A DNA stretch of 64,000 nt from Candidatus Gastranaerophilales bacterium (GCA_947624645.1 CANQLG010000004.1:7006-71005); one strand, 5' to 3'. Positions 14,770-43,711 are shown, counted from the first letter of the stretch. The notes: generated by a model from the sequence alone, not told the origin. A program made the numbers and translations.

Positions 14770-14855
14770 TTTTTGTGTTACTTTTTAAGTTTTGGTATAG
14801 GAAGATGAGAAAAAATAATAATAAACACGTTGAAGATAAGAAAATGTATTTTGTA

Positions 14856-17800
14856 ATGGGGGGGGGTAAAAAGAGAGTACTGGCAGCTGCTGTTTTTATT
14901 GTTTTCATTTACGGCAGTAATACATGTATTGCCGAAGAAAGCAAATTAGACCCGACACTGGGAGATAATAGCGGATATACATTAAATCCAGTAACAAGTG
15001 AAGAAAGCAATGTAAAAGCCTTTACTTATGATTCTGAAAGTCAAAAATTAACAACTCAATACTATCAAATTGATATTAAAAGAGACTCCCAAGGAACAGG
15101 TAATAAAATACAGTATTATGAATGGAGCAAAAGTGCCGAGGGCGGAGACCTTTTGGAACCTGTTAGTTATCCGACAGCATATATGGTTTATTATGATGAA
15201 AAAGATCATTATAATAATACGGAGCCATACAAAGTTACAGGTACCGGACATATAATAGAAAAGGATTTTATCGGAAACCATATAACCTCCGGCAACCATA
15301 ACGGTAACGGTATTTATAATGAAGGCGGTATAACAAGTATAGTTGGCGCTTTTATTCATAATTACAGCAAAATAGAATCAGGAGCAGGTTCTAATAACGG
15401 CGGAGCTGTTAATAATACAACTAAAGGCGATATAGGATCTATAAAAGGAAATTTTATCGGTAATTTTATCAGTGCTGTTAGTGATTCAAACGGCGGGGCT
15501 ATTCTTAACAACGGTCATATAGGCAATATAGAAGGAAATTTCATATCAAATTATTCAAGGACAATAGGTGAACATAACGGTTATGGCGGGGCTATATATA
15601 ATGTTAACGGTGTTATAGATTCAATTACCGGAGATTTTATTGATAATCAAGCCTATGCAAACAGATATGCAGATGGCGGAGCTATATTTAACAGCAGTGG
15701 TACTACAAAAATTACAAAAATTAAAGGTGATTTTGTCGGTAATAATGCAAGAGGCTATCAAGGTTTAGGCGGTGCTATATTTGATATCGGGGGTATTTCT
15801 AATATAGAAGGGAACTTTATTCACAATTATACTTATACAGAGGGTGATTTGCACGATGATGATAACAGTAATAAAACACCTGATGTACCTGTAAGTTCTC
15901 AAGGCGGAGCTATAATTGAATACGCTCAAAACAGAGACGTTACAATAACCGGTGATTTTTACGGAAACTATGCTCAATCAATACAACATGAAGGTCAAGG
16001 CGGCGCCGTATATGCAAATTCTAAAAAAGGGTACTCTTTTACTCTTAATAGTGATTTTTATCATAATTATATTATTGGTAATAAAGGTGCAAAAGGCGGA
16101 GCTATATACAATGCAGCAGACGCTACCGTATATTTAAACGGAAAAGAATATTTTCTTAACCATACAAATACAGAATCAGACGAATCAAAAGGCGGTGCAA
16201 TATATAATGAAGGTATTATTAATAATCTAAGCAATGTTACATTTGTTCAAAACTATGCAGAATCAAAGACAGGTTCAGCTCAAGGCGGGGCAATTTGGAC
16301 AAATCAAGATTTAACAATATCTGCTAATGCAGGAACTTCCGAATTTACTAATAACTATGTAAATGCGGCAGGTGTTCAATCTCAAGAAGCCATATATGTT
16401 GATAACGCAAAAACTTTAACGTTAAGCTCAACAAATAAAGGAAAAATCCTTTTTAATGACATCATAAACGGTTCAAATTATAATTTAAATTTAACAGGTG
16501 ATAATACGGATTCGGTAATTATTTTTAATAACAAAGTAGTTAACGCTAATGCTACATTAGAGAATGTAACTTTAAAATTAGGCGCAAATGATAATATATT
16601 TAATGAATCTGTGTTAAACATTAACAGCGGTTTCGTAGATACCGCCGACAATGAATATATAGACTATAATTTTAACGAATTAAATTCTAAAGGTTCAGGG
16701 AAATACACCATTGACATAAATTTAAGCAAAGACACAACCGAAGATAAAGCAGACACATTCAATATAAGTAAAAGTGAAAACGGAAGTTATATTGACTTAT
16801 CCAATGTTGCAGTTAATACTTTAAGCAATTATAAAGACAATGCAGACAATGAAGAAGTTCATATTATACAAATAATTAAATCTGCTGACGGAAATATTCA
16901 ACTAAAATTAAACGGCGAGATACAAACAGTTACTGAAGCAGCTGCTGAAATGACAAGTCAATATATATTAGCAAAAGAATTTGGTCTATATACAAAAGAA
17001 ACAACAAATGACAGTATCAAATTGGTCGGCTGGAGAGATAATCTTGCTGCTTGGAGTGAACTGGAAGTTAATGACGGAACTGAAAAAATATTTACTATTA
17101 AATCCGGTGATACTCAAAATCTTACAAGAAATATTGAAAAATTTGCAGGTAAAGATATTAAAATTATCGGCGAAGGTTCTAACACTTTAAATGTAAATAA
17201 TAAAAATTTATTTGATGATATTAAAGAAGACCAAAATGTTTATTTATCAAACTTTTCTCTTAAAAATGCTGATAAAATAAATAACCATGGTTCTATGACT
17301 TTTGAAAATATCATTTTGGAAGATTCTTCAAAGGTTTCAAATAATAAAGACTTAATAATCAAAGGTAATACAGATATCAACGGAACAATTACAGCCGATA
17401 GTAAAGGAAATTTAACCTTTGATAATTCCGCTATAAAAATAACAGGTAAAGTTGAAAATCAACAAATAAACAATAACAATAGTGAAACTACGCTTGTAAA
17501 TATTAAAGATTTCGCTAATAACGGACTGACTATGAACGGTGGAAATTTTAATATAACAAATTTAGGGTTAAACAATTTGAGTTTAAATAATTTAAATTTA
17601 AAGGACGGAAACATTAATATTGATAGAGTTGATGTTGACCTTAAAAATTCCATAATGGGAAGAATTACTGCTGATAAGTACAATATTGGAAAAGATTTCA
17701 AAGGTGAAATCAATATTAAAGATATGAACATCACAAGTGATTCCGAACATATGCAGACCGTTGTAGATTTTGCGGATGAAGCTATAAAAAATTACGTAAA

Positions 17801-19079
17801 TACACAAATAACTGAAGCTCCGACAGCAGGGCAGCAATGGAATGTTTATTCACCTATATACAAATATACGGTTGAATATTCGGCAGATGGAACACACGGG
17901 AATAATGGATATTTTGTATTTTCACGAGGAAATACTCCGACCGGAAATGATTATGACGGATTTAACCCTGCTGTACTTCCTTCAGCCGTTGCTTCACAAG
18001 CAGGCGGTTATGCTGCCGTTAACGAATCATTTAATTACGCATTTGAACACGCTGATACATTTTCGGCTCTGCCTTCATACGAAAAATATGCAATGCTTAA
18101 TGCAAATAAATATGCAATAACAGAAGGTCAAGAATTAAAAGGCTATGTAAATGAAATAAATCATAACAGCACTTGGGTAAAACCTTATGCCACATTTGAA
18201 AATATACCTTTAAAGAACGGCCCTGATGTAGATACTATTACTTATGGTACGTTAGTTGGTACTGACGGCGACATCAAAGAATTAAAACACGGATGGAGTA
18301 CGGTATCAACCGCATATATAGGATATAACGGTTCAAGTCAACACTACCGGGGCGTTGATACAACTCAAAACGGCGGATTGCTCGGTTTAACACAAACTTT
18401 TTACAAAAATAACTTTTACAGTGCAATCACTGCTTCTGTTGGTGCTGCTGTTGGCGAATCTTCCACAATGTACGGGAATGAAGACTTTACAATGTTATTA
18501 TCGGGTGTAGCTTCTAAAAGCGGTTACAGCTTTGAATTTAACAACGGTAAATTCATAATACAACCCACGTTATTACTGGCATATACATTTGTAAATACAT
18601 TTGATTACACTAATGCAGCAGGAGTCAGAATAGACTCTGACCCGCTACATTCAATCCAAGTACGTCCGAATATAAAATTTGTAGCGAATACCGAAAACGG
18701 CTGGCAGCCATATATTTCCGCTGGTGTTGTATATAACATAATGGATAAAACGGAAGTAAATGCCATTAACGGTACAACTGATGTAAGATTACCCAATATG
18801 AGTGTTAAACCTTATGCTGAATATGGAATAGGCATACAAAAACGTTGGAATGATAAATATACGGGATATGCTCAAGCAATGGCTCGTTCCGGCGGCAGAA
18901 ACGGCGTCGCTTTAACTTTCGGGTTCCGCTGGACATTAGGTGATGACAAAAAAATTGAAAAAGTAGAATATAAGAAAGAAAATAAAAATATAACTTTTAT
19001 AGCTAAACTCATAAATAAAATTAAAAACATTCAATTTTCTGCAAATTGCAACGTACCATATACAGCTAATAAATTGTAA
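14856..19079 (+). CDS. Type Va autotransporter with Pmp-type (GGA[IV] / FxxN) passenger repeats
   Basis: Signal peptide MGGGKKRVLAAAVFIVFIYGSNTCIA; about 10 alternating FxxN..GGAI(Y/F)N repeats; C-terminal beta-barrel region (..AYIGYNGSSQHY.., ..ALTFGFRW). Alternative in-frame starts lie at 14805 and 14844, and the ORF is open from 14775. Confidence 0.85.
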   Translation: MGGGKKRVLAAAVFIVFIYGSNTCIAEESKLDPTLGDNSGYTLNPVTSEESNVKAFTYDSESQKLTTQYYQIDIKRDSQGTGNKIQYYEWSKSAEGGDLLEPVSYPTAYMVYYDEKDHYNNTEPYKVTGTGHIIEKDFIGNHITSGNHNGNGIYNEGGITSIVGAFIHNYSKIESGAGSNNGGAVNNTTKGDIGSIKGNFIGNFISAVSDSNGGAILNNGHIGNIEGNFISNYSRTIGEHNGYGGAIYNVNGVIDSITGDFIDNQAYANRYADGGAIFNSSGTTKITKIKGDFVGNNARGYQGLGGAIFDIGGISNIEGNFIHNYTYTEGDLHDDDNSNKTPDVPVSSQGGAIIEYAQNRDVTITGDFYGNYAQSIQHEGQGGAVYANSKKGYSFTLNSDFYHNYIIGNKGAKGGAIYNAADATVYLNGKEYFLNHTNTESDESKGGAIYNEGIINNLSNVTFVQNYAESKTGSAQGGAIWTNQDLTISANAGTSEFTNNYVNAAGVQSQEAIYVDNAKTLTLSSTNKGKILFNDIINGSNYNLNLTGDNTDSVIIFNNKVVNANATLENVTLKLGANDNIFNESVLNINSGFVDTADNEYIDYNFNELNSKGSGKYTIDINLSKDTTEDKADTFNISKSENGSYIDLSNVAVNTLSNYKDNADNEEVHIIQIIKSADGNIQLKLNGEIQTVTEAAAEMTSQYILAKEFGLYTKETTNDSIKLVGWRDNLAAWSELEVNDGTEKIFTIKSGDTQNLTRNIEKFAGKDIKIIGEGSNTLNVNNKNLFDDIKEDQNVYLSNFSLKNADKINNHGSMTFENIILEDSSKVSNNKDLIIKGNTDINGTITADSKGNLTFDNSAIKITGKVENQQINNNNSETTLVNIKDFANNGLTMNGGNFNITNLGLNNLSLNNLNLKDGNINIDRVDVDLKNSIMGRITADKYNIGKDFKGEINIKDMNITSDSEHMQTVVDFADEAIKNYVNTQITEAPTAGQQWNVYSPIYKYTVEYSADGTHGNNGYFVFSRGNTPTGNDYDGFNPAVLPSAVASQAGGYAAVNESFNYAFEHADTFSALPSYEKYAMLNANKYAITEGQELKGYVNEINHNSTWVKPYATFENIPLKNGPDVDTITYGTLVGTDGDIKELKHGWSTVSTAYIGYNGSSQHYRGVDTTQNGGLLGLTQTFYKNNFYSAITASVGAAVGESSTMYGNEDFTMLLSGVASKSGYSFEFNNGKFIIQPTLLLAYTFVNTFDYTNAAGVRIDSDPLHSIQVRPNIKFVANTENGWQPYISAGVVYNIMDKTEVNAINGTTDVRLPNMSVKPYAEYGIGIQKRWNDKYTGYAQAMARSGGRNGVALTFGFRWTLGDDKKIEKVEYKKENKNITFIAKLINKIKNIQFSANCNVPYTANKL
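14858..14866 (+). repeat. G9 homopolymeric tract overlapping the start codon (ATGGGGGGGGGT)
   Basis: Counted directly: nine consecutive G at 14858-14866. Confidence 0.95.
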
Positions 19080-29038: not shown

Positions 29039-30073
29039 TTATCTGCCATTTATCCGTAAATCTGTCTTTTTTACAAAAGCAGGAGTAATTAAATCCCATG
29101 CTGCTTCTGTCGGATGGTCATTTTCCTGCAAATATTTAGGAGAATTTAAATATTCCTTCGTAATTTCCGTAGTATCAATTACTATAAAACCGTTTTGCTT
29201 TAATTTTTCTTTCATTAAATCATTAAAAGCTATATTTTGTCTATCATTTTTATCGGTATAATCACCATAATTATACATCAATATAATAAATTTAAGTTTA
29301 TTATTACTATTTACCCCCCCCCAGAACCAATTTCTTTCAAGCTCTTTTCTTGTTTCAATAAAATACTTAAGCGCATAATCGGTCACTTTATCTTCAATTG
29401 TGTGATAAGGAAATAGCCAAGGCTCTGGATAAGAATAATATTCAGCTATATTTTCATTTATATATTTAAATGTATAAGATGATTTTAATAAATTTAAAAA
29501 TATATTTTTATAATTGTCCGCTACAAGGCGTTTATCCTTGTATTTATAATGTATGTAAAATGAGTCATCAAGTCTGTCATAACTGCCTTTAATAAGCATT
29601 CGGTAGTAATGATCATGCATTAATATATATATAACAGTATCAGAATATGGTATTTGTTTATAAAAATCAGTTTTGTCCTTTTCTTTAGCTTGAAAATACA
29701 TATGTTGCAGTCCCCACCCGGGGTATGATCGGTTAAAAACAGAACGACCTGTTAATTTTGATAACTTATAACTAAATATTTGCCAAGGTTCAAGGTATTG
29801 ACCATAGGCAAATGAACAACCAAAAACTACTATAGGATTTTTCCCTTTGTCATATTTTGAAATTATCGGGTCACGATAGTCTATACTAAATCTATCAATA
29901 AAATGTCCTATCGGTTTTTTTAATATATAATGAAATTTAGGTATTTCTCTACGTATACAATATTCTTTATAATTGTATTTAAATATTATTACATCTAAAA
30001 TAAATATTAATACCAAAATAAACAGTATATTTATAAGCAAAATCCCTACAATTTTAAATATTTTCTTTCTCAT
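29039..30073 (-). CDS. Membrane-anchored SGNH/GDSL-like hydrolase or acyl-esterase (putative surface-glycan modifier)
   Basis: N-terminal TM helix; VVFGCSFAYGQ (block I G-x-S); C-terminal ENDHPTEAAW (block V DxxH). It lies 4 nt downstream of glmS on the same strand. Confidence 0.5.
   Translation of the reverse strand: MRKKIFKIVGILLINILFILVLIFILDVIIFKYNYKEYCIRREIPKFHYILKKPIGHFIDRFSIDYRDPIISKYDKGKNPIVVFGCSFAYGQYLEPWQIFSYKLSKLTGRSVFNRSYPGWGLQHMYFQAKEKDKTDFYKQIPYSDTVIYILMHDHYYRMLIKGSYDRLDDSFYIHYKYKDKRLVADNYKNIFLNLLKSSYTFKYINENIAEYYSYPEPWLFPYHTIEDKVTDYALKYFIETRKELERNWFWGGVNSNNKLKFIILMYNYGDYTDKNDRQNIAFNDLMKEKLKQNGFIVIDTTEITKEYLNSPKYLQENDHPTEAAWDLITPAFVKKTDLRINGR
29314..29322 (-). repeat. C9 (G9 on the coding strand) homopolymeric tract inside the SGNH-like gene
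   Basis: Counted directly: ttaCCCCCCCCCagaacc. The coding strand reads TGG GGG GGG GTA (W-G-G-V). Confidence 0.95.
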
Positions 30074-30077
30074 ACAC

Positions 30078-31925
30078 TTATTCCACCGTAACTGATTTAG
30101 CCAAGTTTCTGGGCTGATCTACATCTTTACCTAAAAATTCCGCAATATAATAAGCAAGAAGCTGCAATGGCACGCAGGTTATTGCAGGCGAAAGTATTTC
30201 CAAAACTTCCGGTATTCTTATAACTATATCAAACAGGTTATTTAAGGATTCATCTTTAGAAGAAGTCAGTGCTATAAGTTTTGCATTACGAGCTTTAGCC
30301 TCTTCACTGTTTGAAAGTACTTTTTCATAGGTTATGCCTCCGGGGATTAATATTGATAAAACGGGCATAGTTTCATCAAGCATTGCAATAGGCCCGTGTT
30401 TTAATTCGCCTGCCGCATATCCGGTCGCATTAATATAGCTTATTTCTTTTAACTTCAAAGCTCCTTCCAAGGCTGTTGCAAGATTAACCCCTCTGGCAAT
30501 ATATATAAAGTTTTTATATGAAGAAAATTTTCTTGCACATTCTTGAATATCTGAAGTATTGGACAAGATTTCTTCTATTTTGGTCGGGAGCTGAATTAAT
30601 TCGTGTTTAATACTCTTTAAATAATTTTTATCAAGTGATTCTTTAATTTCGGCAAGATGTATCGCAAACAAATAAAACGAAATTAATTGTGCGGTATAAG
30701 ATTTTGTTGCTGCGACACTTACTTCTATACCTGCATTAACGGGGATTAAGCTGTCTGCTAATCGAGCCATATTAGAGTCCGGACGATTAGTTATAATTAA
30801 TACATGAGCATTTTTTTCTTTTGCCTGTTTTATTGCAGTAATTGTATCAGCGGTTTCTCCTGATTGAGATACTCCTATTACGAGAGTAGATGAGTCTGTT
30901 GTTGTTTTTCTGTATATATATTCGCTTGAAGCTTCAACTTCAACAGAAATACCAGCAAAATCTTCTATAATATACTTACCGACAAGAGCGGCATGCAGTG
31001 ATGTTCCGCATGCTATAATTTGTATTTTATTGAGTTTTTTCAATATATTTTTATCTAATTTCACTTCGCTTAAATTAACGGGGGCATCAATGTCGTAGAG
31101 TTTTCCGTTAAGCACATTTCTGATAACGTCGGGCTGTTCATGAATTTCTTTAAGCATAAAATGTTTATAGCCCATTTTACTTAGAGCCATAGGTTCCCAA
31201 GGAAGCATTTCTATTTTTTTGTTAACTATATTACCGTTTATATCGGTAATTTTTACGGAATCTTTTGTAATAACGGCTATTTCATTATCATCAAGATAAA
31301 TAGTTTTCTTTGTATATTGAACAATAGCAGGGGTATCACTTGCGATAAAATTTTCACCATCACCCAAGCCAACCAGCATTGGTGCGTGTTTACGTGCGCC
31401 TACTATTAAATCAGGAACATCTTTATGCATAACACAAATAGCATAAGCTCCCTGAAGTTTTTTTACCGAATTTCGGACTGCAATTTCTAAATTTTTAGCT
31501 TTTGCATATTCATCTGCAACGAGGTGTGCTATTGTTTCGGTATCTGTTTGAGAACGGAAAGTGCAGCCTTTTTTAATCAATTCTTCTCTTAGTTCTTTGT
31601 AGTTTTCAATAATACCGTTATGTACGACAACAAGTTTACCGCAAGAGCAGGTATGAGGATGGGCGTTAATCAAAGAAGGCGAACCGTGTGTAGCCCATCT
31701 TATATGACCTATACCGCTTGTAGGATGATTTAATTCTGATTTTCTTGAATTTAGCTCATTTTTAAGATTAATCAATTTGCCAAGAGTCTTATATATTCTG
31801 AGTTCTCCGCAATCATGAAGCGCCATGCCCGCAGAGTCATATCCTCTATATTCTAAATTGGTTAAAGCGTTAAAAATAACGTCTACAACATCTTTATTGC
31901 CTGCATATCCGATAATTCCGCACAT
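30078..31925 (-). CDS. glmS: Glutamine--fructose-6-phosphate aminotransferase
   Basis: MCGIIGY N-terminal nucleophile, two SIS domains, and the C-terminal ..NLAKSVTVE. The start is moved to 31925 so that Cys is residue 2. Confidence 0.95.
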   Translation of the reverse strand: MCGIIGYAGNKDVVDVIFNALTNLEYRGYDSAGMALHDCGELRIYKTLGKLINLKNELNSRKSELNHPTSGIGHIRWATHGSPSLINAHPHTCSCGKLVVVHNGIIENYKELREELIKKGCTFRSQTDTETIAHLVADEYAKAKNLEIAVRNSVKKLQGAYAICVMHKDVPDLIVGARKHAPMLVGLGDGENFIASDTPAIVQYTKKTIYLDDNEIAVITKDSVKITDINGNIVNKKIEMLPWEPMALSKMGYKHFMLKEIHEQPDVIRNVLNGKLYDIDAPVNLSEVKLDKNILKKLNKIQIIACGTSLHAALVGKYIIEDFAGISVEVEASSEYIYRKTTTDSSTLVIGVSQSGETADTITAIKQAKEKNAHVLIITNRPDSNMARLADSLIPVNAGIEVSVAATKSYTAQLISFYLFAIHLAEIKESLDKNYLKSIKHELIQLPTKIEEILSNTSDIQECARKFSSYKNFIYIARGVNLATALEGALKLKEISYINATGYAAGELKHGPIAMLDETMPVLSILIPGGITYEKVLSNSEEAKARNAKLIALTSSKDESLNNLFDIVIRIPEVLEILSPAITCVPLQLLAYYIAEFLGKDVDQPRNLAKSVTVE

Positions 31926-31995
31926 GAAACACACCCTTATATAACTGATATCTTAGTATATAATACCTTATAAAAATATAAAAGATATTAAGATA

Positions 31996-33678: not shown

Positions 33679-34125
33679 CGTCTATTTGCAAGCCTTTTAG
33701 CCATGCTAATTATTTTTTTATTCGGCGGATTTTCATTTATTCTCACATTATTCTCACATTTTTCAGAAAAAATATTATTTATCTTATTCCGAGCTTTAAT
33801 TATCATATCGTTATTGTTCTTAGCGTATATTTTTAAAGTCGTTTCCGCTTTTGAATGACCTACTTGATTTTAAACAAATTTTACACTTAAACCGTTTGCC
33901 AAGCCCAAATCAATATATGAGCCTCTTAAATCGTGCATCCTCACTCGTTTTTCAATTCCGCAAAGCTCAAGCAGTTTATACCAAAATCTTATGCAGAAAT
34001 TACTGTCATTATGGCAATTGCCTGCTCGATTCGAAATAACAAAGAATTATCTTTATCAAGAGTTTTTATATGCTCTTTTAGAACTTCTGCAAAGAACGCA
34101 ACGGGAACAAGTTTTAATGACGCAT
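33672..34125 (-). pseudogene. Tyrosine recombinase (phage integrase) remnant: C-terminal catalytic half with an in-frame stop and a frameshift
   Basis: The minus strand reads ..VPVAFFAEVLKEHIKTLDKDNSLLF.. then, in another frame, ..FCIRFWYKLLELCGIEKRVRMHDLRGSYIDLGLANGLSVKFV*NQVGHSKAETTLKIYAKNN... The HxLR and GH..T..Y boxes are present, there is a TAA between them, and the N-terminal half is absent. Confidence 0.75.
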
Positions 34126-35138
34126 TCAGATTAATTCGCACCGAAACGAGCCATATTGACGGGCAAGTAACACTCGAGGGCTACAAACAGGCAAAAGAGG
34201 AATTAGGGCTTGAATATTATGATTATGACGCTTTTTTAGATTCGAAAACGTCGACAATTTGTGAAGAATTAAACGGTAAAAGATTTAGAATAGATGAAGC
34301 CGAAGTCGGGGTGAATTATCCCCCAATGCACCCGAACTGCCGAAGTACAACACAACTTGTTTTAGATGAGAATTATAAAAAGGAAGAAAAAGAAACCGTA
34401 AAAGTAGGTGCAAACGAAAATAAAAACAACGAAGCAAAAGAAACAAATAAAAATTCTGCTCAAAAAAGCTCTGATGATAAACCCGTCTTAATTGAAAAAG
34501 GAACACAGAAAAAAGGCTCTGAAATACCGAAAGAAGAAAAAATTACTTATAAACCATTTGATAATGGAGAAGCAGCTAATGAATTCTTTTATAAAAATAA
34601 AGAATATCAAAAATGGGTTAATAGCCTGAATAAAGACGAGACTGAAGCAATACAAGAATATACAGAAGATTTATATTCAGTTATTAATGACAAATTGCGT
34701 GGATTTTATGATACTGATGATAAACTTATTAATGATGCAATAAATAAATTAAGCAATTCTATTGATAATTTTAAATTAACTGATAATATTCAAGTTTATA
34801 GAGGTGTAGATGTAAATGCTCTTGACGGCTTTATGCGACAAAATAATATAAATAAATATACTGAAGCTATCGGTAAAATTTATAATGATAAAGCCTTTAT
34901 GAGTACATCCTTATTAAAATCAGGTGCAGGCTTAGAAAAATTTAATGAACAAGATATTCAATTTATAATAAATATTCCTAAAGGAAAAGGTCGAGGTGCA
35001 TATATAAATGAATTGTCTTTAAAAAAAGACAAAGAATATGAGTTTTTACTTCAAAAGAACTCAAAACTAAGAATAACAGATGTAAAACCAATAGAAAATA
35101 CTAACCAAACAATTATTTTTGCTGATTTAGAAATTTAG
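33933..35138 (+). CDS. N-terminally truncated MuF/SPP1 gp7-family head-morphogenesis protein fused to a C-terminal R-S-E ADP-ribosyltransferase toxin domain
   Basis: MuF core from about 34090 (FRLIRTETSH.., DSKTSTICEELNGKRF, PPMHPNCRSTT). ART motifs are EYTEDLYSVINDKLRG, VYRG (Arg codon 34800-34802), FMSTS (34902-34910) and EYE (35034-35042). The first ~55 codons of the ORF overlap the integrase remnant and are probably not native. Confidence 0.8.
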   Translation: MHPHSFFNSAKLKQFIPKSYAEITVIMAIACSIRNNKELSLSRVFICSFRTSAKNATGTSFNDAFRLIRTETSHIDGQVTLEGYKQAKEELGLEYYDYDAFLDSKTSTICEELNGKRFRIDEAEVGVNYPPMHPNCRSTTQLVLDENYKKEEKETVKVGANENKNNEAKETNKNSAQKSSDDKPVLIEKGTQKKGSEIPKEEKITYKPFDNGEAANEFFYKNKEYQKWVNSLNKDETEAIQEYTEDLYSVINDKLRGFYDTDDKLINDAINKLSNSIDNFKLTDNIQVYRGVDVNALDGFMRQNNINKYTEAIGKIYNDKAFMSTSLLKSGAGLEKFNEQDIQFIINIPKGKGRGAYINELSLKKDKEYEFLLQKNSKLRITDVKPIENTNQTIIFADLEI

Positions 35139-36413: not shown

Positions 36414-39400
36414 CTATGATTTTACCTCTTTCTTTACTAAATACATTAGCCTTATTGGAGAATCATATGATTTTGTTTGAGGAGGTCTTGTTATATACTT
36501 TTTGACAGGTTGTTCGGGTTCAATTGGGTTTTGTAATTGAGATTCAGATGCATTCGCTTTTTTATTGCGATGATTATCTAACAAATATTGAAGCCCAAAC
36601 TGGAAGCCCACACCGGTAATACCTGCATTACGGATATTAATTTGACCGTATGTTGCCAATTTATCTTTAAATGTTTTAGTAGCACCAAAACCATATTGGA
36701 ACACACCGTGGTCAAGTTTCATATCAGGAAGTTTAATATTTGCAGCATTTCCTTTTACTTTATCATTAATAAAGAACATATACTGGAATGCGGCATATAG
36801 GCTCCAAGTTTCTTTAGCGAAAATGAAGTTTACACCAGGTGCAACATTAACACCGTTTAACATACCCGTACTCATATCTACATCACCATAATTACTGTGC
36901 CATTTTTGTTTTCCAATAGCATTATATGCAACAAATACATTTGGCTGTATAGTGAAACTCTTTGAAGCATGCAAGTTATATGCTGATTTAATAGCACTAC
37001 CTGCAAACCAGTTACCCGTATTATCATTATAGCTTGAGTAGCTCATTTCATTTGTATAACCGCCGCCATATGCCAAAATTGAAGTAATAAAATCGTTATT
37101 TTTAATAAATGATCCCATAAAGCCTAATTGACCTGCATTTTGATATGCACCTGCGCCTTGGAAATATTGATGAGCGCCTGTGTATCCCACATAACCTGTT
37201 GGTACAAACGTCCAATCTTTTTTAAGTTCTATGGCGGGCATATCAAACCCTGCTATTGTGCCATAAATATTATTACCTATTCTCAAATTTTGTTTCATAT
37301 CAAGCTTATCAAAAGAAACATAAGTTTTTGACCACAAACCGCCTTCTTTATATGTTTTTTGATACGGGGCAAACAATGGAGATACGGCAGAATATTTGTT
37401 AGCATTCACTGCTTTATTAATCATAGTTTGATCATGTAAAACAAAATGATTGGTAATCATATCTTCTACTTGCAACTGATTAGAATACATAGCGGTTGTT
37501 GCAACCTGACCTCTGAATTCTTCAGGAACGTATTTTGCAAGATATAAATCAAACATTTTCGGATCACCGTCAACACCCTTTAAGCCATAATATCCGACAG
37601 GAGTTCTGATAAGTTTATCCGTTGTACTGGTATTAACATTTTCCTGTACACTTTCAAACAATTGATACCTTATCGTTCTGTCTAGCGGACATTTACCTTG
37701 GAGTGAAAAATCATCGATATAAAGATTTGCATCTTCAAGCGCACCTTCTTTTTGTGTGACATTTTTAAAATCGAATTTATCACTGCGTTTATCTCTGGGG
37801 CTAAAATCAACCGTAAATTTTCCGGTTCCGTCAAGTTCTACGTTATCAGCCTCAGCACTATCAATCTTGCCGTTCATCAGTCCAAATTTGGAGTTACCCT
37901 CCATTGTTAGTTTATCGGCTTTAAAATTTCCTTCTTCATTATCCGAACCTGCATAATTAAGCGTTGAATTATTAAGTAAAACTTCTCCGCCTCTAATAGA
38001 ACTGTCTTGTCCGTTAAGCGTAATATTAGAATCAGTAAAATTAGATTTACCGCCCGTTTGAAGTAAACCGCCTCCGCTAGCTGTATTATCAACTCCCGTT
38101 GCATTAAGCGTTCCGCCTTTTCCTTCTTCTTTTTCAATTGTAATAGTGCCTGCCCAGATATCTTCTTGATCCAAATTAAAGGTAGCATCATCTTCTATAT
38201 TAAATTTAGCTCCTTTTTCAAGTTCTACTTGGACCTCATCTTTAATTATACTTCCGGAACCGCCTTCGTTTCCTTTGAAATCAAATTCTGAACCGTTTTT
38301 AAATTTTAATTTACCCAGTTCCGCATTAAGTCCGCCTGACTGTCTGCTAACACCTTCTTCATCTTTCGACATACCATATTCAAGAATACCACCGCTTAAT
38401 TTAACATCGCCTGCCCATTTATCATCGTTTCCGAAGGTAACGGCACTATTTTCCTGTACTTCCAGTTTTCCGCCTTGTTCTAAATTAAGGGTTACTTCAT
38501 CGGAGATAATACTTTCGCCTTTAAGTGTCAAATTCAGACCGTCTTCGCCTCCATCTTCACCGATTTGAAGTGTACCGCCTGACATTTTAAGATTTTTAGC
38601 TTCGCCTTCTATTTGCCAGTTTAATTTACCGTTAGTAATATTTGTATCACCGCCAAAAAATTTAGCTTCACCCGTTACATTTGTTGTTCCGCCGGTTTGA
38701 GAATAACTGCCTGTATATCCGCTTGCATCACCCGTCAAATCAATAATACCCTCTTCACTATTGATAATTGCACCTTTTGAAGCGCTTTCGCCGCTAGTTA
38801 ACTTGCCGTTTAATTCCAAGTGACCTTTACCGCTGTTTGTAATACTTCCATCATTTTCTACTTCGTTAAGGGTCATTTCACCTGAATTTTTTATACCGTT
38901 ATCTCCGTTTGCAGTATTTGTAACTTTGCCTTCAACAGAAAGAGAGGCACTTTCACCTGTATTATTAAAGGTGCCTGTGTTTTCCATATTACCTGTAATA
39001 TCATAGGTACCCTTATTATCAACTTTTCCGTTGTTCGTATCATTACCTTGATTTGTAATTGTACCTTCATTTGAGATAGTACCATTATTTGCACTTGATG
39101 TTTGTATTGTTATATTACTGTCTGACGCATTTTTAATATTTCCGTTTTTGGCAGAATTTTCTAATGACCCTAAGGCTAAAGAACCTGCTAAAGTGTCAGA
39201 TCCGTTATTTAATGTGCCGTTATTTGTAAATGTATATCCTTCATTTGTTATTGTACCTGTATTATTTACAGTATCACCGTTTATAATATTTCCGTTAGCA
39301 GTAATTTCAGCTCCGTTTGTATTATCTATGGTACCTTTTGTATTATTCAAGGCATCATTAACAGTTAAATGAGAATCTGCACCATCATTGGTAATAGTTC

Positions 39401-42400
39401 CGCCATTATTTGTAAGTTCACCTGTTATGTTAAATTGTCCGCCTTCTTTATTTTCTAATATACCATTTTGACCGTTTGTTACTGCATTTTCTGCTGTAAA
39501 TTGTGCATTTTCGCCTGAGTTTGTTATTGTCCCGTCATTAGTTACAGCACCTTTTGCATCAAAAGTACCGTTATTTGTTATTTTACCTTGTTCCGATGTC
39601 GATGTTGTACCTTGAACTTCGGTAGTGGAACCATCTTCATTTATATATTCGCCACTATTGTAGTCTAAATTTTCTTCAACAATAACTTTACCTTCATCTG
39701 TTGCATTATTTCTAAAAATACCGCCTTTTCCGAATAGATTTTTAACAGTAAATTTACCGTTATTAGAGTTTAATGCATTACCCGAGTTATTAAATGTTGA
39801 ATTTTCAGCTAAGAATGTTCCCTCATTCGTAAATGTTCCCGAGTTTGTCGCCGTGTCACCCGTTACGGTTACACTTCCTTTATTTGTAAATCCTTTATCT
39901 TCACCTGTTCCGCTATTTTCAAAGGTTTGAGCTGTCAGAGAACTATCTTCGGTTTCATTAGCATATTTACCCGAGTTCGTAAATTTGCCGTTTTCTGCCT
40001 TGAATGTTCCGCTGTTGGAAATATCACCGGCATTTACGGCATCGCCGTTTGATGTAAATTCGCTTGATTCCGAGTTTGTAATTGAAGCGCCGTCTTGGTT
40101 ATTTAATGAATCGACGTTCATTGAATTTTCATTGATTATATTTCCGCCTGATTTATTGTCAAATGCACCTTTAACCGTAATATTTCCTTCACCTGAATTT
40201 TTAACGGAACCTGAATTATCCATTGAACCTGCACTCAGAGTGCCTGTATTTTCTATACCTTTTTTTTCATCAGAACCCGAACTTGAATTGGTCAGTTTTC
40301 CGTCTGTTTTAAAAGTTCCGCTGTTTTCAATAGTACCGTTATTGTTGTTTGTAACATCTCCCGTTATTGTAAATCCGCCTTTACCCTCAGTCTCGGTACT
40401 GCTGTTATTTATACTACCGCCGTCATTTGTTAAATTCCCTTGACCTTTAAAAGTACCTTCATTTACTATATTTCCGCCTGTTTGGTTTTTTATTTCGCCA
40501 TTAACGGTAAAATCAGCATCGGCATTATTTGTTATATTGCCTGTATTACTTCCTATTGAGCCTGCAGTAAGTGAACCCGATTCATTGGTAACCGTTCCTT
40601 TTGTATTTGTTAAAGTACCTGTTATTTCAACATTACTGCCTTTATTTGTAAAACTGTTTTGTTCAGTTGCAAGGGTAAGATTACCCATTGTTAATGAGGA
40701 TTCTTCTGCATCTTCGCCGGTAACTAAATCACTATCACCATTAAGTGTAACGTCTGTAATATTTGCGGTACCTTTATTAGCGAAAGTACCTGTTTCCATA
40801 GTCAAACTTTTAAGGTTAAAAGTATCACCATTATTAGTAAGAGTACCTTTATCAGAATTTGTAAATGAACTCAAAGCTGCATCAAATATACCGCCATTAA
40901 CAAAACTGCCAGAGTTTGTTATTGAATGTTCACCTTGTACGGTAAATTTTCCAGAATTATCAAATTTGCTTGAATTATCAATAGAGCCTGATCCCTCTAC
41001 TAAAACGGTACCTTCATTTGTAAAGCCCTTATCATCACCCGTAGCGTTATTGGTAAAATCACCAGTTATAGTTAAGTTACCCGTTTCGGCTTTATTATCA
41101 AATTTACCGGAGTTTGTAAAGTCACCTGATGAAAATGAACCGCTGTTATCTATTGTACCTTTATTTTGTGTTGAACTTTTTGATGTAAATGAGCTTGAAG
41201 CAGAATTTGTCAGTGTTGCATTTTCTTCATTAGTAAAAGAACCTGCACTCATAGTTTTTTCGTTGGTTATTTGGGCATCACTTTTATTTTCTAATGCCCC
41301 TGAAATATCAATATTACCGTTGCCGCTATTTTTCACAGTACCTTGATTTTCCATCGAGTTAGCCTTTAAGGTACCTGTATTATCTATTCCTGCATCGGTT
41401 GAACCCTTACTTGAGTTTGTAATTTTTCCGTTTGAAGAAAGCGTACCTTGATTTTTTATTGAACCGTCGGTTTGATTTTGAATATCTCCCGTAATTGTTA
41501 TATCACTGGAATTGTTATTAGTTAAAGCACCTGAATTATCAAGTGAACCACCGGTCATTGTGCCAGAGTTAGTTATATTGGCATCACTTTTATTTTGTAT
41601 TTGCCCGGATACCGAGAAATTTGATGAATTTTCTACTGTGCCTGAATTATCTAAAGAATCTGCACTAAATGTACCTGATTGATTATCGATTTTTCCGCTT
41701 TGTTCGTTTGTAACGGCACCTGATGCGGTCGAAGTCCCTTTATTTGTATAATCACCAGAATTCGTCATTGATTCAAAGGTCATTTCACCCGAATTGGTTA
41801 TACCTTTACTGTTATCGCTGTTTTTTCCGGAATTAGTAAACTCACCTGTAATATTCAGTTCTGCGTCGTTTGTAACTTTTCCGCTGTTATTAAATCCCGC
41901 ATTAAATTTTACATTACCCTCATTTTTATTTTCTAAATTTCCGCTATTATTAAAATTTCCGTTTTCAACGCTAAAAGTTCCTCCGTCATTGGTTAAGTTA
42001 GAGCTGTTTGTACTTTCGCCTACACCGTTAACCGTAACTGAGCCTTTATTTGTAAAATTAGCATCAACGCCTTCATTTTTTTCATTTTTGAATGCACCAC
42101 CTACTGTAACTGAACCTGATTCATTGTTAAAAGTACCTTTGTTTGTTAAATCATTATCAGATTGGACTTTACCGCCATTATTAGAAAAAGTTCCCGAATT
42201 AGTAACTGTATCTCCTGATATTGAACTTCCTTCTCCCGTATTATTGAAAGTTCCCTCATTGATTACACCTCCTGTTGCGGTGATGGAACCTGAATTCTCA
42301 TATTGAGAAGTTCCTTCGTTTCTAAAATCGCCTTCTACGTCAAAATCCGCATTTGCAAGGTTCTCTGCTGTTGAACCGTTTGAGTTAGTAAATGCATTTG

Positions 42401-43613
42401 CACTTACGTGTCCTGCATTAGAAAAACCTTTATTATCATTTTTTCCTGAGCTTGAGTTAGTAATTGAGCCTGCTTTTAAATAGGCATTCGCTTCATTTTT
42501 TATGATACCATTTGAGTTATTAGTAATATTTCCTTCTATTGAAAACCCATCTTCTTGAGTACTTGAGTTTGTTATTTCTCCTGTATTTGTTAACGAGTTA
42601 GCAGAAAATTTAGCACTGTTTGAAAGTTGGGCTTGGTTGTCAACTGAATTTGCACTAAATGTACCCGATTGATTGTCAATTTTACCGCTTTCTTCGTTTG
42701 TAACTGCACCTGTTATATCCGTTTGACCTTTATTTGTATATTCGCCTTTGTTGTTCATTGACCCCGCATTCAAATTACCCGAGTTGGATATTATACCGTT
42801 AGGTTCCTCTTCATCCTCTTTTTTTGCGTTTTCTAAGGCAGAAGTTCCAAGGTCTAAAGTCGAATTTTCATAATTTGTTACACTACCCGTATTGGATAAG
42901 CCTTTTGATAAATTCAATTGTCCTTTATTTTTGTTATCCATTTGACCATCGTTAGTCATTTTATCGCTTACACTGAAGCTTCCGCCATCATTAGTGATAC
43001 TGCCTTTATTCTCGCCGGTTCCCGATACAGAGAATGTGCCCTGATTAGTCAATCCTGCACTTTTGTTTTCGTCCGAACCGTTTGTCAGATTACCTGTGAT
43101 AGTTGCCGTACCTGTTGCATCATCAGTCTTTGAATTTGTTATTTGACCATCATTTCTTAAATCAACACCATTCATCTTTCCTTTATTTTCTATGGTGCCT
43201 TGGCTTTTATTTTTAAATTCTCCTTTTGAAGTTAATGTACCTGCACTTTCAATGGTAACATCACCCTCATTATCAATGGTACCTCTTTCTTGATTATCAG
43301 TTATTGAGGTTTCTCCTGTAATTTTGCCGTCATCATCTATGTTTATTTTTGATATACCGTAATCGTCATTCATTACCAGCAAAGTATTGCTTTGTTTTGA
43401 ATCGTCTAAATGTATAATATCATCTTGTTTTATATTATCGTTTGTTATTGTTATTCGCTTTATATCAGGGTTAACACTTGCTTGTGATATTGACATACTT
43501 CCTGTCCCAATCAACGCCGCCAATAATGCAGCCATTTTCAATTTATTTTCGTTATTCAAAAATACCCCCCCCCGAACCTTTTTCAGAACGGGAGCTACTA
43601 TTCTATTCCACAC
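36414..43613 (-). CDS. Giant type Va autotransporter (2399 aa) with an N/G/T/S-rich solenoid-type passenger
   Basis: Signal peptide ..KLKMAALLAALIGTGSMSISQA; about 2000 aa of degenerate ~20-aa xNxGxxxN repeats with large internal duplications; C-terminal barrel region (..YVGYTGAHQYF.., ..GVGFQFGLQYLL). The true start is uncertain (GTG 43613, TTG 43559 or ATG 43535). Confidence 0.85.
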   Translation of the reverse strand: MWNRIVAPVLKKVRGGVFLNNENKLKMAALLAALIGTGSMSISQASVNPDIKRITITNDNIKQDDIIHLDDSKQSNTLLVMNDDYGISKINIDDDGKITGETSITDNQERGTIDNEGDVTIESAGTLTSKGEFKNKSQGTIENKGKMNGVDLRNDGQITNSKTDDATGTATITGNLTNGSDENKSAGLTNQGTFSVSGTGENKGSITNDGGSFSVSDKMTNDGQMDNKNKGQLNLSKGLSNTGSVTNYENSTLDLGTSALENAKKEDEEEPNGIISNSGNLNAGSMNNKGEYTNKGQTDITGAVTNEESGKIDNQSGTFSANSVDNQAQLSNSAKFSANSLTNTGEITNSSTQEDGFSIEGNITNNSNGIIKNEANAYLKAGSITNSSSGKNDNKGFSNAGHVSANAFTNSNGSTAENLANADFDVEGDFRNEGTSQYENSGSITATGGVINEGTFNNTGEGSSISGDTVTNSGTFSNNGGKVQSDNDLTNKGTFNNESGSVTVGGAFKNEKNEGVDANFTNKGSVTVNGVGESTNSSNLTNDGGTFSVENGNFNNSGNLENKNEGNVKFNAGFNNSGKVTNDAELNITGEFTNSGKNSDNSKGITNSGEMTFESMTNSGDYTNKGTSTASGAVTNEQSGKIDNQSGTFSADSLDNSGTVENSSNFSVSGQIQNKSDANITNSGTMTGGSLDNSGALTNNNSSDITITGDIQNQTDGSIKNQGTLSSNGKITNSSKGSTDAGIDNTGTLKANSMENQGTVKNSGNGNIDISGALENKSDAQITNEKTMSAGSFTNEENATLTNSASSSFTSKSSTQNKGTIDNSGSFSSGDFTNSGKFDNKAETGNLTITGDFTNNATGDDKGFTNEGTVLVEGSGSIDNSSKFDNSGKFTVQGEHSITNSGSFVNGGIFDAALSSFTNSDKGTLTNNGDTFNLKSLTMETGTFANKGTANITDVTLNGDSDLVTGEDAEESSLTMGNLTLATEQNSFTNKGSNVEITGTLTNTKGTVTNESGSLTAGSIGSNTGNITNNADADFTVNGEIKNQTGGNIVNEGTFKGQGNLTNDGGSINNSSTETEGKGGFTITGDVTNNNNGTIENSGTFKTDGKLTNSSSGSDEKKGIENTGTLSAGSMDNSGSVKNSGEGNITVKGAFDNKSGGNIINENSMNVDSLNNQDGASITNSESSEFTSNGDAVNAGDISNSGTFKAENGKFTNSGKYANETEDSSLTAQTFENSGTGEDKGFTNKGSVTVTGDTATNSGTFTNEGTFLAENSTFNNSGNALNSNNGKFTVKNLFGKGGIFRNNATDEGKVIVEENLDYNSGEYINEDGSTTEVQGTTSTSEQGKITNNGTFDAKGAVTNDGTITNSGENAQFTAENAVTNGQNGILENKEGGQFNITGELTNNGGTITNDGADSHLTVNDALNNTKGTIDNTNGAEITANGNIINGDTVNNTGTITNEGYTFTNNGTLNNGSDTLAGSLALGSLENSAKNGNIKNASDSNITIQTSSANNGTISNEGTITNQGNDTNNGKVDNKGTYDITGNMENTGTFNNTGESASLSVEGKVTNTANGDNGIKNSGEMTLNEVENDGSITNSGKGHLELNGKLTSGESASKGAIINSEEGIIDLTGDASGYTGSYSQTGGTTNVTGEAKFFGGDTNITNGKLNWQIEGEAKNLKMSGGTLQIGEDGGEDGLNLTLKGESIISDEVTLNLEQGGKLEVQENSAVTFGNDDKWAGDVKLSGGILEYGMSKDEEGVSRQSGGLNAELGKLKFKNGSEFDFKGNEGGSGSIIKDEVQVELEKGAKFNIEDDATFNLDQEDIWAGTITIEKEEGKGGTLNATGVDNTASGGGLLQTGGKSNFTDSNITLNGQDSSIRGGEVLLNNSTLNYAGSDNEEGNFKADKLTMEGNSKFGLMNGKIDSAEADNVELDGTGKFTVDFSPRDKRSDKFDFKNVTQKEGALEDANLYIDDFSLQGKCPLDRTIRYQLFESVQENVNTSTTDKLIRTPVGYYGLKGVDGDPKMFDLYLAKYVPEEFRGQVATTAMYSNQLQVEDMITNHFVLHDQTMINKAVNANKYSAVSPLFAPYQKTYKEGGLWSKTYVSFDKLDMKQNLRIGNNIYGTIAGFDMPAIELKKDWTFVPTGYVGYTGAHQYFQGAGAYQNAGQLGFMGSFIKNNDFITSILAYGGGYTNEMSYSSYNDNTGNWFAGSAIKSAYNLHASKSFTIQPNVFVAYNAIGKQKWHSNYGDVDMSTGMLNGVNVAPGVNFIFAKETWSLYAAFQYMFFINDKVKGNAANIKLPDMKLDHGVFQYGFGATKTFKDKLATYGQINIRNAGITGVGFQFGLQYLLDNHRNKKANASESQLQNPIEPEQPVKKYITRPPQTKSYDSPIRLMYLVKKEVKS
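43565..43573 (-). repeat. C9 (G9 on the coding strand) homopolymeric tract at the 5' end of the giant autotransporter gene
   Basis: Counted directly: aataCCCCCCCCCgaacc. The coding strand reads GTT CGG GGG GGG GTA TTT TTG. Confidence 0.95.
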
Positions 43614-43711
43614 GCAAATGTTATTATAAACATACTTTCAATACAATATTAATAAACATTTATTGTCTTTTTTGTTATAATTTTTAAAATTAGTTTTTTA
43701 AAGGATTTGTC

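Follow-up and report, generated by a model that had tools for sequence, protein, structure and literature searches.

A conserved, length-variable poly-G tract at the Shine-Dalgarno position of a divergent autotransporter gene in Candidatus Gastranaerophilales

In a 64,000-nt stretch of a Candidatus Gastranaerophilales genome (GCA_947624645.1, CANQLG010000004.1:7006-71005; hereafter the window), a giant autotransporter gene on the minus strand is preceded by a run of nine G residues (G9). This tract is very probably non-coding and part of the 5′ leader of the mRNA. It stops 5 nt short of TTG 43559, the most likely start codon, at the place of the Shine-Dalgarno (SD) sequence. Tracts of eight to ten G (G8-G10) stand in the corresponding leader at eight loci, and at seven of the eight they end 3-5 nt before the TTG or ATG of a conserved signal peptide. 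With an anti-SD-like arm in cis, this conserved, length-polymorphic poly-G SD tract is best filed as repeat-mediated contingency control in the leaders of divergent autotransporter genes, whose regulatory effect we infer from leader anatomy and modeling. The host belongs to an order that we take to be part of Melainabacteria/Vampirovibrionia, non-photosynthetic relatives of cyanobacteria; the records give the order name only. The features of the gene and its leader are collected in Table 1.

Table 1. Features of the autotransporter gene and its leader in the window, from the promoter to the 3′ end of the gene.
Feature	Position	Strand	Basis	Remark
Predicted sigma-70-type promoter, TTAATA-18 nt-TATAAT	43623..43652	-	consensus scan	-10 box at 43628-43623
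Conserved leader motif GTG-TGGAATA	43604..43613	-	orthologue alignment	contains GTG 43613, most likely not a start codon
C/U-rich arm CTCCCG, anti-SD-like	43589..43594	-	folding	predicted to pair with C43574 and the first five G
Hairpin loop with conserved CTGAAA(A)	43575..43588	-	leader alignment	CTGAAA(A) at 43581-43586
G9 homopolymer (plus-strand C9), 5′ leader, SD position	43565..43573	-	direct read
A/T spacer TATTT, tract to start codon	43560..43564	-	direct read	spacer of 3-5 nt in relatives
TTG, most likely translation start	43557..43559	-	alignment with orthologue starts
Signal peptide MNNENKLKMAALLAALIGTGSMSISQA	43479..43559	-	translation; judged by eye	predicted cleavage after SQA
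Autotransporter coding sequence	36414..43559	-	translation, homologues	2381 aa from TTG; reading frame from GTG is 36414-43613, 2399 codons
Long alpha-helix before the barrel (autotransporter linker)	37407..37526	-	model residues 110-149
C-terminal beta-barrel translocator domain	36585..37340	-	AlphaFold2 and Foldseek

The minus strand around the tract reads AAA AAG GTT CGG GGG GGG GTA TTT TTG AAT AAC, with the G9 at 43573-43565. Read from further upstream, it begins GTG TGG AAT AGA ATA GTA GCT CCC GTT CTG AAA AAG GTT CGG, and past the start codon it continues AAC GAA AAT AAA TTG AAA ATG GCT. GTG 43613 is in frame with TTG 43559 and 18 codons upstream of it, and an ATG lies at 43535. The positions that a first-pass annotation of this DNA had given for the G9, TTG, GTG, and ATG were borne out by this direct read. 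The same annotation had put the tract in codons 14-16 of the GTG frame; the frame is right, but the tract touches codons 14-17.

Exactly three runs of G or C longer than 6 occur in the window (32.1% GC), at 14858-14866, 29314-29322, and 43565-43573, and each is 9 long. After these come one G6 and some C5, with none of 7 or 8. By analytic extrapolation from the run-length statistics of the window, ~0.02-0.04 runs of 9 or more are expected per window against the three observed, so the tract is beyond chance. Elsewhere in these genomes (~31-39% GC), G or C runs of 7 or more hardly occur. The tract thus has the slippage length and the over-representation for base composition that mark a contingency locus.

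The G9 is the sole purine-rich element at the expected SD site before TTG 43559. Since canonical SDs (AAAGGAG, GGAGG, and GAGGTG) precede genes in the window, an anti-SD of the CCUCC type is expected, and the predicted duplex of the tract with such an anti-SD (-10.2 kcal/mol) is among the strongest in the window. A tract-less paralogue (L002) carries GAGAGG, 7 nt, and TTG at the aligned place. The earlier suggestion that the G-run itself is the ribosome-binding element agrees with this position.

Beyond L001, orthologues were reached by an exhaustive HMMER search of cluster representatives with the N-terminus, which led to the protein P0062, its relatives, and their contigs. The tract comparison covers nine distinct related sequences at eight loci in Gastranaerophilales assemblies, with the window counted in (Table 2). 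Tract lengths across the nine are 8, 8, 9, 9, 9, 9, 9, 10, and 10 G. The tract (8-10 nt) and the spacer (3-5 nt) vary separately, and together they come to 13 nt at five loci and to 14 nt at three. G8-10 is kept across proteins that are only ~40-65% identical, and TTG is the start at five of the seven tract-adjacent loci. L001, the first relative with a 5′ end, reads ...CCCCGAAATGCTGTC G8 TAAAA ATG AAT AAT..., and its synteny includes a divergent threonine-dehydratase-like PALP gene upstream. Read from these sequences, the leader order in a sub-clade of Gastranaerophilales autotransporter genes is a -10 box, (G)TGGAATA, the CUCCCG(A) arm, a 7-14-nt loop, (U)C with G8-10, a 3-5-nt A/T spacer, TTG/ATG, and the signal peptide.

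Table 2. Tract, spacer, and start codon in the window and its relatives.
Sequence	Tract	Spacer	Start	Remark
Window	G9	TATTT	TTG
L088	G8	TAATA	TTG	closest orthologue, syntenic
L096	G9	TAATA	TTG	near-identical to L088
L001	G8	TAAAA	ATG	syntenic
L087	G10	AAT	ATG
L089	G9	TAAAA	TTG
L090	G9	TATT	TTG
L091-94	G9	AATT	TTG	two strain variants, four assemblies
L095	G10		ATG	not adjacent: 30 nt upstream of ATG, stop codon in between

A length difference is also found between near-identical sequences. L088 and L096, from two samples, are 99.92% identical over 9,233 bp, with 6 substitutions and one indel, and this sole indel is G8 versus G9 in the leader tract; the contigs, at 3.4-3.8x coverage, are from an orthologous species. 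No second genome of the window's own strain was found among metagenome contigs or by protein searches. A DNA pattern spanning the tract had 0 matches in the metagenome contigs, an exact look-up of the neighboring PALP protein gave no record, and an N-terminal protein search of a 5.8-billion-sequence set gave no matches. PALP as a metagenome anchor returned 80 loci (best 78% identical, not syntenic).

The start codon was assigned by comparison with the orthologues. The codon aligned with TTG 43559 is ATG in L001 and L087 and TTG in L088, L089, L090, and L091, and the window and L001 proteins align from MNN onward in BLASTP. Between the window and L088, substitutions 3′ of the TTG are mostly third-position or conservative, and the leader has indels. 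ATG 43535 is not conserved as a start among the orthologues, and the signal peptides of L087 and L001 have no alternative possible start. TTG 43559 followed by a signal peptide was one of two starts that had been offered for this gene, and the alignment supports it. The protein is most likely 2381 aa long from this TTG, as read from the sequence, or 2399 codons if counted from GTG 43613.

The other start that had been offered, GTG 43613, would place the tract inside the gene and make it a coding frameshift switch. In this reading a near-leaderless mRNA would be translated from the GTG, 9 nt after TATAAT, the protein N-terminus would be MWNRIVAPVLKK..., and G8 or G10 would truncate the product. 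It seemed attractive at first, given the in-frame GTG near the -10 box and the predicted transcription start, the leaderless-looking genes that are common in the window, and L001, which like L089 has an in-frame upstream start; the G9 of the other autotransporter gene of the window is also coding. Further orthologues led to its rejection. At four of the seven adjacent loci (L087, L088/L096, L090, and L091-94) no in-frame ATG, GTG, or TTG lies upstream of the tract, and in L087, L088, and L090 there is no upstream start in any of the three frames; the tract is therefore in the 5′ untranslated region (5′-UTR), outside the translated frame, and a frameshift from GTG 43613 fails. In-frame upstream starts without an intervening stop are found in the window, L001, and L089, and this rate of three in seven fits non-coding sequence, for which shuffled upstream sequence gives a chance of 34-45%. 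The upstream 'peptides' of different loci are unrelated to one another, and the leader motif that contains the GTG sits in another frame relative to the main start in L001. A strong SD and a start codon right after the tract would also leave an OFF state leaky.

A TATAAT-like box is conserved in the orthologues, and the consensus scan predicts a transcription start near 43616 and a leader of ~55-60 nt. Since the start codon follows 3-5 nt after the tract, the tract must be transcribed. The motif at GTG 43613 reads GT[C/G]TGGAATA in the window, L001, L087, and L090, GTGGAATT in L091, and GTGGTAG in L089. TGGAATA (43604-43610, minus strand) and CTGAAA (43581-43586, minus strand) are both conserved in the orthologous leaders. 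A sigma-54 reading of TGGAATA...GC was rejected for its wrong spacing and because the GC is not conserved. An intrinsic terminator or attenuator (hairpin and U-run) was likewise rejected, as the orthologues do not share the U-rich sequence past the tract (L001 has UAAAAAUG), and a terminator scan of the leader found none.

Upstream of the tract, the leaders share the C/U-rich arm. In the window, L088/L096, L087, L090, and L091 it reads CUCCCG(A) and in L001 CCCCGA, in each case 9-15 nt before the tract; in L089 it is CUCCU, 19 nt before the tract. In minimum-energy and alifold consensus folds, the arm pairs with (U)C and the first 4-5 G, and 3-5 G and the spacer are left single-stranded. The SD is thus predicted to pair with a conserved upstream complement, as in SD-sequestering cis hairpins, at six loci, with CUCCU at a seventh. 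Opening the last five G together with the spacer and the start region has a predicted cost of ~9-13 kcal/mol at G5-6, and at G10 and above this cost is ~3-6 kcal/mol in six of seven leaders and ~8-10 kcal/mol in the window. The drop is steepest at G7-G10, the range that holds all observed alleles. The native leader is more closed over the SD than shuffled upstream sequence at five of seven loci. In the tract-less L002, CUCUC lies upstream of the GAGAGG SD, and a check there for compensatory pairing found that the fold does not favor it (z = +0.35). A search of the window against Rfam gave no family at the gathering threshold or at E up to 10.

We tentatively propose, as the best reading of this anatomy and of the thermodynamic predictions, that a hypermutable SD tract with a cis anti-SD arm acts as a translational rheostat. 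The tract would be a slippage-prone repeat whose length is heritably variable. The upstream C/U-rich arm, which is like the 16S anti-SD, would pair with the 5′ part of the G-run, and only the 3-5 G beyond the stem would be free to recruit the 30S subunit. Gain or loss of one G would expose more or less of the SD and shift the hairpin-to-start distance. The outcome would be graded translation initiation of an adhesin-like protein, with no ON/OFF frameshift. Graded control had been suggested before, by a tract length that sets the SD-start spacing, but this mechanism does not hold: the 3′ edge of the tract is fixed, so slippage leaves the 5-nt spacing unchanged. What slippage alters is the count of G beyond the arm pairing and the distance to upstream elements. 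More speculatively, giant autotransporter genes in gut Gastranaerophilales may share an SD that is itself a hypermutable repeat partly locked by a cis arm, with each slippage event heritably resetting translation to another level as a stochastic rheostat, and these may be the first contingency loci of the lineage, beside classical coding-tract switches.

Several points weigh against such a rheostat. The G8/G9 difference of L088 and L096 is possibly a homopolymer consensus or assembly error at 3.4-3.8x coverage, and the near-isogenic length evidence comes from relatives and not from the window's own strain. L091-94, two strain variants of another species, one of them in three assemblies, are all G9. 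The transcription start is a predicted one. With the many pairing registers that the G-run offers, a change by a single G may matter little. The tract of L095, 30 nt from the start, cannot serve as an SD. The native leaders of L087 (G10) and L089 are not more closed than shuffles, and the folding z-scores are modest (-1.3 to -2.2). The hairpin lacks covariation, with all 5 consensus pairs invariant, because one arm is a homopolymer.

Some of these points lead to the main alternative, in which the tract is a static, strong, multi-register SD that offsets a weak TTG, and the length differences are near-neutral slippage without regulatory use. The frequency of TTG starts, the strong duplex, and the start spacing untouched by slippage suit this explanation, as do the uniform G9 of L091-94 and the weak hairpin statistics. 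However, the SDs of other genes in the window are AAAGGAG or GGAGG and not G-runs. Long G-runs are nearly absent elsewhere and unselected ones should decay, yet G8-10 has been kept among these diverged proteins. The C-rich arm is conserved, and the other two G9 tracts of the window are in typical contingency-gene positions. We consider a purely static SD unlikely.

It is improbable that tract length acts instead through a partner in trans, such as a C/U-rich small RNA (sRNA) or a G-repeat-binding protein, or through transcript level or stability. A G-repeat in the 5′ leader has a precedent at Helicobacter pylori tlpB (PMC8295292). The L095 leader keeps its G10 at a distance where a non-SD role is possible, and the unexplained conservation of TGGAATA and CTGAAA would also fit. 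Against this, the search, confined to the 64-kb window, turned up neither a candidate sRNA nor a known RNA family, and the C-rich arm already provides a pairing partner in cis. In L095 (1420-1432) the G10 directly follows CCC, with CCUC just 3′, and its leader location is kept.

A promoter-spacer repeat is very improbable. Here CTGAAA would be the -35 hexamer, TATTTT (TAnnnT) the -10 hexamer, and the tract would set a spacer of 15-17 nt. CTGAAA or CCGAAA does stand 15-17 nt before a -10-like hexamer (TATTTT, TAATAT, TAAAAA, AATTTT, or AATATG) in six loci, and such an arrangement would account for the constant length of tract plus flank. However, these hexamers are poor consensus matches, and the codons right after the TTG/ATG are conserved in a coding pattern. 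Transcription would begin past the start codon, whereas promoter-spacer phase variation has the tract between -35 and -10 and a transcription start before the start codon; with CTGAAA, 16 nt, and TATTTT the start codon would be untranscribed in L001 and L087, whose signal peptides have no other in-frame start. The coding frameshift from GTG 43613, for the reasons given above, is scarcely credible.

The encoded protein was identified as an autotransporter by its structure. By eye, MNNENKLKMAALLAALIGTGSMSISQA has n-, h-, and c-regions and an SQA motif, as in an N-terminal Sec signal, and this signal peptide is conserved in P0066 (MNNGSKLRLAAILAALIGTGSFTISEA) and L001. An AlphaFold2 model of the last 479 residues (mean predicted local distance difference test score, pLDDT, 72.8) has a 40-residue helix and then a barrel, with strands at 172-423. 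This corresponds to the C-terminal 12-stranded beta-barrel and pore-spanning helix of type Va autotransporters. The best Foldseek matches are EspP, Hbp, BrkA, AIDA-I, and NalP, with E from 3e-12 to 5e-9 and a target-normalized TM-score (TMt) of 0.64-0.80. As in these proteins and in Pmp-like passengers, a signal peptide is followed by a very long, repetitive passenger, then by the linker helix and the barrel at the C-terminus. In contrast to the type Va set, the window protein is missed by sequence profiles. Pfam gave no match, even at E up to 10, to this open reading frame (ORF) or to the large ORF 14775-19079, and a profile search of PDB sequences with the window protein found nothing. Among 17 aligned homologues, one matches PF03797 (Autotransporter beta-domain, 2.5e-13), and several homologues carry Chlamydia-PMP repeats (PF02415). 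The C-terminal third finds relatives in metagenome-assembled genomes labeled Candidatus Gastranaerophilales, and later homologues include proteins that NCBI names as from Gastranaerophilales HUM_10 and HUM_11. The description '2399-aa autotransporter' was therefore right in the reading frame from the GTG and, on the structural evidence, in the protein class, which Pfam misses; the length is 2381 aa from the TTG. A sequence-divergent autotransporter is supported by the modeled structure and not by the sequence profiles.

Autotransporters normally end at the barrel, at a last strand with a terminal aromatic residue in type Va. In the window protein, the last barrel strand is followed by ~55 low-confidence residues (36414-36584, minus strand), the final part of which is a short helix. 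The orthologues of this autotransporter have a similar lysine-rich tail.

Examples of surface proteins switched by repeats come mostly from a few pathogens (Neisseria, Haemophilus, Campylobacter, Helicobacter, and Chlamydia), in which frameshifts or promoter spacing are the usual mechanisms. Neisseria porA and opc, Bordetella fim, and the poly-G of Treponema tpr are promoter-spacer homopolymers that give graded expression of outer-membrane proteins. The tract described here is like them a non-coding homopolymer, but theirs lie between or upstream of the promoter hexamers, whereas this one is transcribed. In Moraxella catarrhalis uspA1, a 5′-UTR poly(G) reportedly affects transcript level or stability. 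RNA thermometers and riboswitch expression platforms use SD-sequestering leader hairpins in which, as here, an upstream anti-SD-like segment pairs with the SD; their input is temperature or a ligand, whereas the input proposed here is SD length, which would change heritably.

The closest functional analogue is the leader of H. pylori tlpB-hp0102, in which a length-variable G-repeat is the target of the sRNA RepG and control is gradual (PMC8295292). Both have a homopolymeric G-repeat in the 5′-UTR that pairs, here by prediction from the sequence, with C/U-rich RNA. In the present leaders, the C/U-rich partner is in cis, 9-15 nt upstream (19 nt in L089), and the G-repeat occupies the SD position, 3-5 nt from the start. 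The 5′-UTR heptanucleotide repeats of Haemophilus influenzae hmw1A form a hairpin that is processed by RNase III (PMC12721329). They too are transcribed repeats in the leader of an adhesin gene that act through RNA structure with one G-rich arm, but the 7-nt unit is multi-copy, far from the SD, and subject to RNase III cleavage, whereas here a mononucleotide run forms the SD. Poly-G tracts are coding in Chlamydia pmpG (PMC4488443) and in many Campylobacter, Neisseria, and Helicobacter genes (PMC6321876, PMC5084427). The pmpG-type tracts likewise consist of G8-10, stand at the 5′ end of genes for surface proteins, and occur in host-associated bacteria of low GC in which such runs are over-represented. 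They differ in that the tract studied here is outside the ORF and its slippage cannot cause a frameshift; the window tract at 14858-14866 fits the pmpG-type class.

Full-text literature searches gave no paper linking Gastranaerophilales to phase variation, and the top-ranked results for the broader repeat literature included no Melainabacteria paper. Quick searches found no published example of a repeat that itself forms the SD, which is weak evidence of novelty. The present leaders would place a repeat device in an uncultured gut commensal lineage, at the ribosome-binding place and pairable with a conserved anti-SD-like arm. If tract length tunes translation, an adhesin-like protein would here be under heritable, graded control by a design that is compact and easy to test. 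Should length turn out not to matter, a correction still follows, namely a tract outside the ORF, a protein of 2381 aa from TTG 43559, and a true, divergent autotransporter. Annotation is affected as well: the called start is an in-frame one upstream in L089, and in L091 an ATG that lies six codons downstream. Assemblies may also be broken, or the run miscounted, at such tracts.

The other two G9 tracts of the window are in different settings. The tract at 14858-14866 (plus strand) belongs to ORF 14775-19079, which encodes 1434 aa with a C-terminus of the same family as the window autotransporter (hhalign E 2e-40). It directly follows ATG 14855-14857 and precedes a signal peptide, KKRVLAAAVFIVFIYGSNTCIA. 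Since no start codon follows the tract, this G9 is coding, and by its sequence context it is of the classical ON/OFF frameshift type. The two autotransporter tracts had been described as mirroring each other; they share the G9 length and the protein family, but the tract at 14858-14866 is coding, after its ATG. Upstream of this ORF, TGnTATAAT, 5 nt, and GTG give a leaderless appearance. The third tract (29314-29322, minus-strand G9) is in frame in the middle of a 344-aa ORF (29039-30073) immediately downstream of glmS (30078-31934). This ORF has a weak GDSL/SGNH-hydrolase match (E 0.034) and is possibly a phase-variable surface-modification enzyme.

At the gene starts 19322, 11656, 48636, 51545, and 60455, TATAAT or TAAAAT lies 6-7 nt before the first ATG with no SD. 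From such arrangements, leaderless mRNAs seem to be common here, and other genes of the genome have strong AAAGGAG-type SDs.

Further G-runs were seen in the relatives. In L087 (7096-7111), a G8 followed by A8 lies ~75 nt past the stop codon of the orthologous autotransporter gene. The contig L084 (1-73, minus strand) ends in at least 9 G, 24 codons into a gene divergent from an autotransporter paralogue, and such tracts may break assemblies in this clade. In L033-L077 (e.g., L033 5672-5679), ~30 contigs of an unrelated human-gut organism of ~44% GC, a G8 versus G7(A) polymorphism occurs at one site ~480 nt 3′ of the PALP gene. In the window itself, a 401-aa ORF with Phage Mu F-like and ADP-ribosyltransferase exotoxin domains (33933-35138, plus strand) lies ~1.3 kb from the 3′ end of the autotransporter gene.

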